From assembly GCA_963711655.1 (NCBI GenBank), contig CAVQEW010000006.1, positions 599 to 64,598 on the forward strand: a stretch of 64,000 nt of DNA. Reading direction: 5' to 3'. Both the position numbers and the translations under genes were made by a program. The notes beneath the pieces are model-generated. The model was not told the DNA's origin. It saw nothing but the letters and a program-made list of their open reading frames with translations, and searched no databases. Numbering within the stretch: the first letter of the stretch is position 1; the number at the start of each line of letters is the position of its first letter. Origin of the DNA: an uncultured Actinomycetota bacterium (GTDB taxonomy: Bacteria; Actinomycetota; UBA4738; HRBIN12). Positions 956 through 40,063 of the stretch are shown here, piece after piece.

Positions 956-2044
956 GTGACGACGGACGAAATGGGGGCCGGGGCGACCCGGTCTCCGCTC
1001 GTTCCTCCGCGGCCGAAGAGAGACCGGCTCGCGCTGGCGAGCGCGGGCGTCTCCTTCCGGGTGAAGGTCGCCCTCGTGTGGGTCGCACTCCTCTCGGCCA
1101 TGGCCTTCCTCTTCTGGGGGCGTCGTTCAACCAGGAGTGGATCCGAGAGCACGTCGGCTTCATCGCGAGAGGGCTGGTGTTCACCCTGGTCATCGCCCTC
1201 GGGGGGATCGTCCTGGCCGTCACCCTCGCGCTGGTCGGAGCCCTCGGGCGACTCTCCCGGAACCCCATCGCGTATGGCGTAAGTGGCTTCTACACGTCCT
1301 TCTTCCGAGGCACGCCGCTGATAGTCCAGCTCTCGCTCTTCTACAGCGCGATGCCGAGGACCGCGCAGACCCTCCTCGACAAGTTCCCGAACTTCCTCCC
1401 GCCAGAACTTCGACGACTTGTTCACCTGGACCGCATTCCAGGTCGGGATCGTGGTGCTGGGCCTCAACTACGGGGCCTACATGACGGAGATCTTCCGTGC
1501 GGGCATCCAGTCCGTGAGCCACGGACAGGCCGAAGCCGCAGACGCCCTCGGCATGACCTACCGACAGAAGATGCGCCGGGTCGTCCTGCCGCAGGCCTTC
1601 CGGGTCATCATCCCGCCGACGGGCAACGAGTTCATCGCGATGATGAAGGACACGGCGCTGATCTCGGTGCTCGGCCAATCGCTCGAATCGATGGAGCTCT
1701 TCCGGCGAGCACAACTCGCTCGGGAACGCTGACGTGAAGCCGCTGGAGGCGCTCATCACGGCCGCCGGCGCTCTACTGGGTCCTCACTGCGATCTTCACG
1801 TTCTTCCAGAGCCGGCTCGAGCGTCGGGTGAGCAAGGGCTACGTCCGCGACGGTCGCGGGGGCCCGAAGGGCCGCGAACGGGGGAAGGTGATCGTGCCGG
1901 GACGGCGGGCGGTGGAGTCCACGGAGGAGCCGCCGGGTACACGATGGACGCTCCGGAGGAGCCGGCCCCGACCCCGCCTGTCCACGGGGAGTGGTCCCGC
2001 CGACCCTGGAGCCGCCGGAAGCCGAGCCCCAGGAGCGGTCGTGA
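956..2044 (+). CDS. Polar amino-acid ABC transporter permease (HisM/GlnP family, several frameshifts; end approximate)
   Basis: FFRGTPLIVQL and EAA loop (EIFRAGIQSVSHGQAEAADALGMT...VVLPQAFRVIIPPTGNEFIAMMKDTAL) spread over several frames. Confidence 0.85.
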
Positions 2045-2808
2045 CACCCGACGGCCAGGCCGTGGTCCGGGTGGAGAACCTCCACAAGTCCTTCGGTGAC
2101 CTGGAGGTCCTGAAGGGCATCGACATGGAGGTGGACCGCGGCGAGGTCGTGGTGATCTTCGGACGGTCCGGGTCCGGGAAATCCACGCTCCTGCGATGCA
2201 TCAACTTCCTCGAGGAGCCGACCGTCGGGACGATCGAGGTCTCGGGGCAGCGGATCGAAGGGGGTCACCGGATCCGCAGCAAGCGCGACCAGATCCGCCA
2301 GCTCCGAATGCATTGCGGCATGGTGTTCCAGCAGTTCAACCTCTTCCCGCACATGACCGCCCTCGGCAACGTCATGGAGGGTCCCGTCACGGTCAAGGGT
2401 ACTCGAGGAGGACCGGGCCCGACGGCTCGCGATCGAGGTGCTCGGCAGGGTCGGGCTGGCGGACAAGGCCGAGGAGTACCCGATCCGCCTCTCGGGCGGA
2501 CAGCAACAGCGCGTGGCGATCGCGAGGGCGCTCGCGATGGAACCCGACGTGATGCTCTTCGACGAGCCGACGTCCGCCCTCGACCCGGAGCTGATCGGGG
2601 AGGTGCTCGGGGTCATGAAGGCGCTCGCGATGGAGATGCACATGACGATGATGGTCGTCACGCACGAGATGGGGTTCGCTCGGGAGGTCGCGTCCCGGAT
2701 GGCCTTCTTCCACGAGGGACGGATCCTCGAGGAGGGCACTCCCAGCGCAGATCTTCGACTCGACCCAGCTTCTCGGAGACGCGACGGTTCCTCGACGCGG
2801 TCCTGTAG
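2041..2808 (+). CDS. Polar amino-acid ABC transporter ATP-binding protein (GlnQ-like, frameshifted)
   Basis: Walker [23 protein letters not shown], signature [17 protein letters not shown], Walker [14 protein letters not shown]. Confidence 0.9.
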
Positions 2809-3111
2809 AGGAAGAACGGCAACGGGCCGCGTCTCCGATCCGAAGCGTTCGCGCCTTCCCCATACGCGAACGCCACTTCCCAGCGACGCGGCCCGTTGCG
2901 GTTGGTCTCCTCGGACCGCCACCACGATCGGTCGGAATCGATCGTGGCTCGCGTCCCGTTGAGGACCGTCGCGGACTGTAAACGGGAGGTTGAGGGATGT
3001 CAACCCGACGAAGCCCCGGCCAGAGTCATTGCGGAGCAGGGGTCGCTTCCCAACGTTGCAGGTCGTGAACGTGCAAGAAGAGTGACACGAACCGGCACGT
3101 GTCCGCGAGCC
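2808..3111. ncRNA. Candidate structured non-coding RNA or element between convergent genes (family not recognised)
   Basis: 15-bp perfect stem 2819-2833/2885-2899 with inner stem 2845-2853/2865-2873; hairpin 2922-2947; multibranch domain closed by 2946-2953/3104-3111 holding five hairpins. Confidence 0.5.
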
Positions 3112-3131
3112 TCGGCGGCGTCAGACCTGAG

Positions 3132-4025
3132 TCAGGAGGGGACGTCGGTGTCGACGTGGGCCGAGGTCCTCGCCGAAGTCTCGTGTTCGGGTCGAGACTT
3201 CATCCCGGGCATCTTCGGCATCCGGAGGAAGAGACCACCGATCACCAGCAGGTAGCCCGCCCAACCCACGACCTCGAGCCACGTCGGATCGGCGTTGTAC
3301 CCGACCAGACCCCGCAGGATCGCGCCGGCCCCGGCGTCGTCGGGGAGGCTCGCCGAGATGTCGAACGCATGCGTCTCGAGGAACGGGATCCAGCCCGCCT
3401 CCTGGAGCTCGTGCAGCGAGAACGCGAACAGTCCGGCGGCCACGACGATCAGGATCATGCCGGTCACTCGGAAGAACGACCGGAGGTTCATGCGGATGCC
3501 GCCGCGGTAGAGGAGCGCGCCGAGGACGACGGCCAGGACGAGGCCGAGGACCGCTCCGGTCACCTGCGTGGCGGGCGCGACGGCCGTGCCCTCGACCGCG
3601 GTGCCCTTCGCCGCGGCGTACAGGAACAGCGCCGTCTCGATGCCCTCGCGGAGGACCGCGAAGAACGCGAGCCCGGCGAGCGCCAGCCCGCCGGCGACGA
3701 GCGCGGTGTCGACCTTCTCGTGGAGCTCGGACCTGATCCGTGCGCCCTGCCGGCGCATCCAGAAGATCATCCACGTCAGGACGCCGACGGCGGCGAGCGT
3801 CACGAGTCCTTCGAAGACCTGTTCGGCGGTGCCCTCGAACTCGGCGCCGGCGAGGAAGATCGCGGTGCCGACCGCGGCGGAAAGGAGGACGGCGAGCGCC
3901 GTTCCCCACCACACGAGCCGAGAGCGATCGGTGGCCCCGAGCTGCTTCAGGTAGGCCAACACGATCGACACGATCAGCGCAGCCTCGATGCCCTCGCGGA
4001 GGGCGATCACGAATGACGCTCCCAT
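3132..4025 (-). CDS. FTR1/EfeU family iron permease
   Basis: Two REGxE motifs (LREGIEAAL, LREGIETALF) in a multi-TM protein; GGAGGAAG RBS. Confidence 0.92.
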   Translation of the reverse strand: MGASFVIALREGIEAALIVSIVLAYLKQLGATDRSRLVWWGTALAVLLSAAVGTAIFLAGAEFEGTAEQVFEGLVTLAAVGVLTWMIFWMRRQGARIRSELHEKVDTALVAGGLALAGLAFFAVLREGIETALFLYAAAKGTAVEGTAVAPATQVTGAVLGLVLAVVLGALLYRGGIRMNLRSFFRVTGMILIVVAAGLFAFSLHELQEAGWIPFLETHAFDISASLPDDAGAGAILRGLVGYNADPTWLEVVGWAGYLLVIGGLFLRMPKMPGMKSRPEHETSARTSAHVDTDVPS

Positions 4026-39973: not shown

Positions 39974-40063
39974 GTCGGAGTGGCGGAACTTGGTAGACGC
40001 GCTAGGTTGAGGGCCTAGTCCTCTTCACAGAGGGTGGGGGTTCAAATCCCCCCTCCGACACCA
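39974..40063 (+). tRNA. tRNA-Leu (anticodon GAG)
   Basis: Acceptor GTCGGAG/CTCCGAC plus A-CCA; D-loop TGGTAGAC; anticodon arm CTAGG-TTGAGGG-CCTAG; long variable arm; T-loop GTTCAAATC. Confidence 0.96.

Follow-up and report, generated by a model that had tools for sequence, protein, structure and literature searches.

A predicted small RNA gene with a conserved 3′ hairpin in uncultured Actinomycetota

Few non-coding RNAs (ncRNAs) occur about once in each genome throughout a bacterial class and also outside it, and to our knowledge those known so far, namely signal recognition particle (SRP) RNA, RNase P RNA, transfer-messenger RNA (tmRNA), 6S, Ms1 and 6C, all serve core processes. We analysed a 64,000-nt stretch of DNA from an uncultured Actinomycetota bacterium (GenBank assembly GCA_963711655.1, contig CAVQEW010000006.1, positions 599 to 64,598), which is referred to as the window and whose numbering is used throughout. 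Between two convergent genes, encoding an ABC ATPase and an FTR1 permease, the window contains an element at 2809-3003 on the minus strand that we consider, with a probability of roughly 0.8 and leaving its mechanism aside, to be an independently transcribed small RNA (sRNA) gene of a conserved family. This RNA family is absent from RNA databases and is widespread in uncultured soil Actinomycetota. A preliminary description of the region, made from the sequence alone, had proposed that 2808-3111 form a single structured RNA of about 300 nt, in which a rod and a hairpin are followed by a six-way junction.

Among the described RNAs, Ms1 binds the RNA polymerase core through a conserved core made up of a central bubble and its flanking helices, and 6C has two hairpins with C-rich loops. 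According to PMC4191392, Ms1 is about 300 nt long and most conserved in its central bubble and the adjacent helices; the same source and PMC6582537 describe one gene per genome, transcribed from a sigma-A-type promoter of its own and ended by a rho-independent terminator, a structure that is conserved more than the sequence, and purine-rich internal loops. PMC9130861 reports Ms1 from no lineages other than orders of the class Actinomycetia, and Tables 1-3 of that paper place it beside genes for a HAD-IB hydrolase or phosphoserine phosphatase and for an oxidoreductase.

The locus described here is likewise, by prediction, a single-gene unit with its own promoter and terminator. It differs from Ms1, which was compared by description only, in that the RNA would be about 158 nt long, its core is the terminal 3′ hairpin and the rest can be missing, and in that its neighbours are FTR1, ZIP, polA, DUF554 and ABC transporter genes; no Pfam family of HAD hydrolases was found among 94 upstream, 96 downstream and 33 distant-lineage neighbouring proteins. 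It resembles 6C as a short actinobacterial sRNA with a conserved homopurine or homopyrimidine hairpin loop, but has one conserved hairpin and a G-rich loop.

Fold and promoter of the predicted RNA gene

Two alignments were used, A1 of 21 same-genus sequences and A2 of 129 distinct family 3′ domains; some tallies, and alignment rows L006-L008, L031 and L038, include genomes marked unpublished. The features of the predicted gene, all on the minus strand, are the following.

2998..3003, minus strand: -35 box TTGACA (sigma-70-like site scan)
2975..2980, minus strand: -10 box TACAGT, 17 nt after the -35 box (sigma-70-like site scan)
2967..2971, minus strand: predicted transcription start, about A2969 (placed by the conserved distance from the -10 box to the 5′ helix)
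2904..2967, minus strand: 5′ domain rod, closed by GGUC.CUC/GAG.GACC (alifold)
2819..2899, minus strand: 3′ hairpin, the family-defining core (covariation in A2; covariance model R1)
2854..2864, minus strand: apical loop UAUGGGGAAGG, 11 nt (invariant columns of A2; distant homologues)
2809..2818, minus strand: pyrimidine-rich tail GUUCUUCCUC, the probable 3′ end (sequence; abuts the ABC ATPase stop codon at 2806-2808)

The predicted RNA, of about 158 nt (minus strand, about 2969-2812), comprises a 5′ rod, a 3′ hairpin and a pyrimidine tail. Its minimum free energy and centroid structures were identical (-99.1 kcal/mol) and none of 200 shuffles folded as well, giving a z-score of -7.04. The wider region noted earlier as densely folded (2800-3125) also beat its shuffles, with z -5.16 on the minus strand and a weaker z -2.53 on the plus strand. 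The whole gap between the flanking genes was alignable in 23 of 26 same-genus genomes at 76-84% identity, with both flanking genes present, and in A1 long invariant blocks alternated with variable stretches of constant length. Both conservation and covariation were found, in A1 as in A2. The two-rod model was 96.7% paired over 1169 cells of A1, with compensatory changes in 8 of 56 pairs, and on four of five measures the observed value was not reached by any shuffle. Cells with G-U outnumbered those with A-C by 107 to 15 in A1 and by 272 to 56 in A2, indicating that the minus strand is the RNA strand, for which a mild preference had already been expressed.

The 5′ rod contains small purine-rich internal loops (1-2 nt in the window) and an apical hairpin (2944-2925). 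In A1 this domain had 95.9% of its cells paired and four pairs with compensatory changes; pair 2956/2914, for example, occurred as GC in 8, GU in 7 and AU in 6 sequences. Support was stronger still for the 3′ hairpin, which in A2 was 95.6% paired over 3339 cells with compensatory changes in 17 of 26 pairs, and for which, on all five measures, none of 500 shuffles was as good. Two elements of this hairpin are not helical. In the apical loop the eight bases GGGGAAGG were invariant in all 129 sequences of A2 and present in all eight distant-lineage alignments displayed, and below it an asymmetric purine-rich internal loop, with the consensus GAGUAGAnAAC opposite GGCUCCAAAGG, was nearly invariant in the family. 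We take the AGUA-containing internal loop to be reminiscent of loop-E-type motifs.

The nine helices of the preliminary description are all complementary as drawn, and three of them survive comparison in A1: the lower stem of the rod (2819-2833/2885-2899, 98.1% paired), its apical stem (2845-2853/2865-2873, 92.1%) and the hairpin 2922-2930/2939-2947 (85.4%, with compensatory changes in three pairs). The six-way junction at 2946-3111 found no support. Its closing helix (2948-2953/3104-3109) was just 53.4% paired, and the arms 3084-3089/3098-3103 (53.8%) and 3010-3014/3045-3049 (38.5%) were not kept either. The arm 3056-3060/3072-3076 was 88.6% paired, although one of its pairs was broken in 10 of the 21 sequences and none changed in a compensatory manner. 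Another, 2988-2993/3000-3005, coincides with the -35 box and the promoter spacer and is uninformative on pairing because it is invariant. The last, 2954-2960/2981-2987, was 84.9% paired but would pair RNA with the -10 region, which lies before the predicted start, in competition with the better-supported 5′ rod. An alternative pairing of 2970-2976 with 3101-3107 uses a non-conserved stretch near the FTR1 stop codon. A single RNA of about 300 nt thus has in its favour that all its helices exist in this one sequence and that one metatranscriptome contig (2920-3070, see below) covers part of the junction, and against it that the closing helix and two arms were only 38-54% paired among the 21 relatives, that a fourth arm is the invariant -35 box, and that other genera keep only short DNA-like motifs upstream of the promoter, with variable sequence between them; we regard it as very improbable. 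Only the left half of the region would be RNA, and the right-hand 140 nt (2970-3111) are, as far as their sequence tells, the predicted promoter, conserved upstream DNA motifs and a terminator-like hairpin of the FTR1 gene.

Within 2600-3300 the scan gave no sigma-70-like site other than TTGACA-17-TACAGT (3003-2975, minus strand), which has 10 of 12 consensus matches; 0.1 such sites were expected by chance. A strict pattern (TTGACN, 17 or 18 nt, TAnnnT, 5-9 nt, start of the conserved 5′ helix) fitted 118 of 138 distinct family loci. In these 118 loci the -35 box was TTGACA in 108 and TTGACT or TTGACG in 10, the spacer 17 nt in 100 and 18 nt in 18, and the -10 box TAnnnT in every case; the distance from the -10 box to the 5′ helix strand GGYCY was 7 nt in 103, 8 nt in 10 and 6 nt in 5. 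The 20 loci missed by the pattern comprised 16 same-genus loci that have TTGACA-17-TACAGT followed by a helix starting with GGTTC, three near-matches, and one (L030) without a promoter. Between genera the spacer sequence changes while the hexamers and their spacing stay, as expected of a promoter, and a conserved promoter at a fixed distance from a covarying 5′ helix looks like that of a stand-alone RNA gene.

On the plus strand, a Shine-Dalgarno-like GGGAGG lies 7 nt before an ATG at 2997 that opens a frame of 23 codons, and both GGGAGG and ATG are invariant in most of the genus. A small protein encoded there is nevertheless exceedingly unlikely: the ATG is replaced in 4 of 21 relatives, cysteines are lost, the frame lengths among relatives are 4, 5, 22-23, 47-48, 75-94 or more than 200 codons, and the same bases form the -35 box and spacer of the minus-strand promoter.

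Taken together, the housekeeping-type promoter TTGACA-17-TACAGT would start transcription near 2969, and the product of about 158 nt would fold into the 5′ rod and the long 3′ hairpin with its pyrimidine tail. Hairpin and tail would terminate transcription just before the convergent ABC ATPase stop codon, the hairpin probably being an intrinsic terminator as well, and the RNA would most likely act in trans through this hairpin.

Distribution and relation to described RNAs

A search of a species-representative genome collection with an 18-base pattern of the apical hairpin returned at least 118 stretches. The matches listed came from metagenome-assembled genomes (MAGs) of uncultured Actinomycetota or Actinomycetes, apart from a few MAGs labelled as other phyla. 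Five pattern loci lacked the hairpin and were chance matches, four of them from other-phylum MAGs; one other-phylum MAG with a true element is probably explained by a mis-binned contig.

A covariance model of the 3′ hairpin domain (R1), whose seed alignment includes the window sequence, scored the window copy at 83.8 bits (E 7.9e-16). This copy has the features by which the family was recognised, a hairpin with the GGGGAAGG loop and the conserved internal loop, preceded by TTGACN-17/18-TAnnnT. Matches to R1 were found in 143 of 151 genomes of the window's class, all sampled within one order, in 98 of the 100 high-quality genomes and in all 56 genera, mostly as one per genome. In a phylum-wide scan all 11 class genomes had a match, as did genomes of five other families (10/10, 8/10, 2/10, 1/1 and 1/1); most other sampled families of the phylum had none (for example 0/8, 0/10, 0/10, 0/7 and 0/9). 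The R1 family thus shows the distribution of a core ncRNA, with an invariant eight-base loop and a conserved promoter, yet has no Rfam entry. The model allows easy annotation of the family.

The part of the RNA preceding the hairpin varies greatly. Some family members lack the 5′ domain altogether, others have up to about 250 nt of it, and the window has a short form. The RNA of most class members is about 235 nt long; in it the 5′ end and the segment that immediately precedes the 3′ hairpin form a 14-bp helix, which encloses several variable hairpins. Of this helix, 13 of the 14 pairs were formed in 53-54 of 54 longer forms, one of them occurring as GU in 20, GC in 18 and AU in 16. The distance from the 5′ helix to the loop was 99-102 nt in the short forms, to which the window's genus belongs, and 129, 173-203, 218 or 237-245 nt in other members. 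One distant lineage has the hairpin directly after the promoter, and its RNA would be about 90 nt, so the hairpin alone can be the whole RNA. Since the 5′ domain is variable to absent, the hairpin is the family core, and as the window itself holds a reduced form, the function of the family must sit in the hairpin.

A few genomes had two good R1 matches, among them G295 (C1:42635-42749, L219), where the second copy differs in the sequence of its stem and carries a UUUGGGGAAGG loop, and G143 (contigs C45 and C62); these may be paralogues or bin contamination. In G044 a normal copy (C1) was accompanied by a second apical-hairpin match at a contig end (C82; L030/L051), upstream of which the sequence is coding-like and lacks a promoter, and which may be a fragment or an assembly artefact.

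Scans against the 4227 families of Rfam 15 at permissive thresholds gave no match for the window copy, for 10 longer members or for 20 distant members, in agreement with the earlier failure to recognise a known RNA by eye. The sole sub-threshold score in these scans was to Actino-pnp (RF01688), which gave the best Rfam score of the window hairpin (28.6 bits, E 0.002, minus strand, 2827-2891), below its gathering score of 47.7 bits, so the window hairpin does not count as a member. The likeness consists of a long G+C-rich hairpin with an AGUGG/CUUCG-like internal loop. However, these letters are lost in same-genus relatives, none of the 10 longer and 20 distant family members matched at E <= 1, and no pnp gene follows, the polynucleotide-phosphorylase family being absent from the Pfam matches of 96 downstream neighbours. 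A full-text literature search returned papers on Ms1 and 6S, none describing the R1 family.

SRP RNA has a locus of its own in 5 of 5 genomes, and the same is true of RNase P RNA (3 of 3 genomes) and of tmRNA (2 of 3; the window's own genome is 73% complete); these three identities were rejected on that ground. A counterpart of 6S or Ms1, that is, an abundant housekeeping RNA that binds RNA polymerase where neither of these can be found, was considered as well. Like 6S, the RNA is near-universal, mostly single-copy and highly structured, and in the longer forms a closing helix joins its 5′ and 3′ ends. It also has a consensus promoter, and with Ms1, as described in PMC4191392, it shares a separate promoter and terminator, both predicted here. 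The 6S model (RF00013) gave no match at E <= 1 in five class genomes (the window's own and four relatives, two of them single-contig), and the 6C model (RF01066) matched none of five class genomes. The silence of RF00013 is weak evidence, since this model detected 6S in just 5 of 14 control genomes. Moreover, the conserved central bubble of 6S was not found here; the bubble between long helices that is crucial in 6S and Ms1 would have to lie in the variable domain, of 0 to about 250 nt, which is absent in one lineage, and what is conserved is an additional terminal 3′ hairpin, the core. The HAD-hydrolase synteny given for Ms1 in Tables 1-3 of PMC9130861 was not met with in the neighbours listed above, and in one carrier genome outside the class (G226) the 6S model scored 44.3 bits at another place, just under its cut-off of 46.4. 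The RNA does not look like 6S or Ms1, and we consider such a counterpart improbable.

Possible role of the hairpin

If the RNA gene is real, we favour, tentatively and at a little under even odds, the 3′ hairpin as a protein-recognition module, either the partner of a protein or a decoy for one. What speaks for it is the presence of two separate conserved non-helical elements on one rod, with the rest dispensable, which is the usual look of protein-binding sites on RNA. A more specific version, which is possible at best, is that the hairpin is the RNA half of a ribonucleoprotein present almost throughout deep-branching Actinomycetota, or else acts as decoy for a protein of the core machinery. 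The RNA would then fill the housekeeping-sRNA niche held by 6S, Ms1 and 6C elsewhere in the phylum, its carriers being uncultured soil and sediment Actinomycetota where those three cannot be found; the lineage-specific 5′ domains would be add-ons, and the operator-like upstream motifs would tie the level of the RNA to a conserved regulator. The hairpin, at 75-90 nt, would make a compact bait in a search for a partner.

Given a real gene, the main rival reading, a base-pairing seed in the G-rich loop, is doubtful, and as an overall account of the locus, a regulator whose GGGGAAGG seed acts on C/U-rich mRNA sites is rather unlikely. It is suggested by eight invariant, exposed loop nucleotides kept across classes. 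An invariant exposed loop on a stable hairpin is how a seed appears in Hfq-less bacteria, and a G-rich seed would mirror the C-rich-loop sRNAs of Gram-positive bacteria. Base-pairing would, however, leave the equally conserved internal loop unexplained. The loop complement CCTTCCCC occurred four times within -80..+30 of 1747 gene starts (called crudely, in an own genome with frameshifts), compared with five times in a control window and three for the reverse-complemented motif, and its 161 copies in the genome compare with about 190 expected. Mimicry of 23S rRNA was rejected, as the sole GGGGAAGG in the 23S lies half in a stem and in another context.

Several observations weigh against a stand-alone RNA acting through its hairpin. 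The tail in the window is poor in U; relatives have U-richer tails (UCUUUCCCUUUCUC in L028, UUUUUCU in distant forms). The spacer of the promoter hardly varies within the genus, more constancy than a promoter by itself would account for. A search of sequencing runs gave four runs with a small share, from relatives, only one of which is surely RNA; the contigs from the runs, of low depth and again from relatives, fell on 2817-3090, whereas the organism's own flanking genes were covered by none. In the metatranscriptome (X3) two read-length contigs from a relative, at a depth of 2-4, lay on 2817-2896 and 2920-3070. As the second spans the predicted promoter, it points to DNA carry-over or to read-through from FTR1, and read-through would argue against a start at 2969. 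Sites complementary to the loop showed no enrichment near gene starts in the crude test on the own genome. Mimicry of an anti-Shine-Dalgarno sequence was also rejected: the loop paired with the 3′ end of the own 16S rRNA at -9.2 kcal/mol and shuffled loops at -12.2 kcal/mol, 438 of 500 shuffled loops being as good as or better than the real one in this crude test. Neither protein binding nor base-pairing is directly supported.

Neighbouring genes and upstream motifs

The gap between the stop codons of the convergent ABC ATPase and FTR1 genes is about 320 nt. The ABC ATPase gene lies on the plus strand and ends with TAG at 2806-2808; the FTR1 permease gene lies on the minus strand (4079-3144 by tblastn, with the stop codon of the open reading frame at 3132-3134). 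The element is single-copy in its own genome (2.34 Mb, 15 contigs) and is therefore not a dispersed REP or MITE repeat, a point raised in the preliminary description.

In 94 loci the upstream neighbour, co-directional in 75, was by Pfam FTR1 in 43, DNA polymerase I (polA) in 17, a ZIP permease in 16, DUF554 in 10, and another or no family in 8. Of the 96 downstream neighbours, 40 were ABC ATPases and 11 ABC permeases. The convergent orientation of 76 of the 96 leaves no downstream gene to regulate; a riboswitch or cis-leader would have a co-directional gene immediately downstream, and the gene in the window is the convergent ABC ATPase. The earlier view of a stand-alone ncRNA rather than a riboswitch is borne out.

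The same neighbours bear on the alternative that there is no independent gene, the element being a bidirectional terminator or 3′ untranslated region of the FTR1 and ABC genes, or an antisense RNA against read-through from the ABC operon. This would fit the position of the 3′ hairpin 10 nt from the ABC stop codon, the ABC ATPase or permease gene that follows in 51 of 96 loci and the prevailing convergence, the convergent ABC ATPases at 5 of 17 distant-lineage loci, and the metatranscriptome contig 2920-3070 if it represents FTR1 read-through. Yet a plain terminator needs no invariant loop, no internal loop, no covarying 5′ domain and no promoter at a fixed 7 nt; the upstream gene changes from locus to locus while the element stays, and FTR1 has a terminator-like hairpin of its own upstream of the promoter. 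We consider this alternative highly improbable, and retain an independently transcribed sRNA gene.

At the 17 distant-lineage loci the neighbours included polA in 3, DUF554 in 2, convergent ABC ATPases in 5 and no metal permease. From this we conclude that the old arrangement was polA, the RNA gene and a convergent ABC operon, and that the metal permeases are a class-level insertion. An iron- or zinc-responsive sRNA, to which FTR1 (43), ZIP (16) and a DtxR-type gene (1) among the 94 upstream neighbours had pointed, is weakened by the absence of such neighbours from all 17 loci; the promoter presumably has no fitting IdeR-like box, judged by the consensus. In the class loci L052-L191 the upstream slot alternates between FTR1, ZIP, DUF554 and a divergent polA, as though a single site between polA and the sRNA gene had received now one transporter gene, now another.

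Upstream of the promoter the following DNA features were noted in the window.

3029..3039, minus strand: palindrome CTGC-TCC-GCAA, in the family GTTGC-N3-GCAAC; candidate site for a regulator
3057..3063, minus strand: upstream box ACCTGCA (family motif ACCTGCR; in 111 of 118 loci ACCWGS precedes the -35 box by 30-85 nt)
3075..3103, minus strand: terminator-like hairpin of the FTR1 gene, GACACG...CGUGUC with a T-tract (terminator scan, hairpin 3103-3084)

A match to yTGN-N3-NCAr no more than 45 nt upstream of the -35 box was present in 74 of 118 loci. In 66 loci 13-14 nt separated the palindrome from the -35 box; in eight, including the window and same-genus loci, the distance was 25 nt, about one helical turn more. 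The palindrome and the ACCTGC box recur in distant lineages, in one of which (L225, L227) the box is half of a perfect palindrome of about 29 bp. Within the FTR1 terminator-like hairpin lies a conserved box GTGTCACTCTTCTT (3088-3075), although the stem itself is kept to only 53.8% in A1; the GTGTCACTCTT box (GTCACWC), present in 77 of 118 loci, is in the window the 3′ half of this hairpin and its T-tract. We infer the upstream motifs to be putative sites of regulators on DNA, and their conservation upstream of the -35 box suggests that the promoter is regulated. An exact-pattern search with the palindrome for a regulon gave zero matches, even at the sRNA loci themselves, the pattern being too strict.

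At one locus of a distant lineage (L212, G226:C100) the gene convergent with the sRNA gene encodes a PdtaR-like response regulator with an ANTAR RNA-binding domain; the sRNA hairpin is, in our understanding, unlike the dual-hexaloop target of ANTAR proteins. Elsewhere in the window, a tRNA gene at 39974-40060 (plus strand) was the sole Rfam match at gathering score in the 64 kb. The ABC ATPase gene of the window (2032-2808, plus strand) is broken by at least two frameshifts relative to the protein of a relative, which aligned in frame +1 (2032-2403), in frame +2 (2384-2743) and, for the last 11 codons, again in frame +1; these are either assembly indels, in a MAG of 15 contigs and 73% completeness, or the mark of a pseudogene. 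The FTR1 gene beside it is intact.

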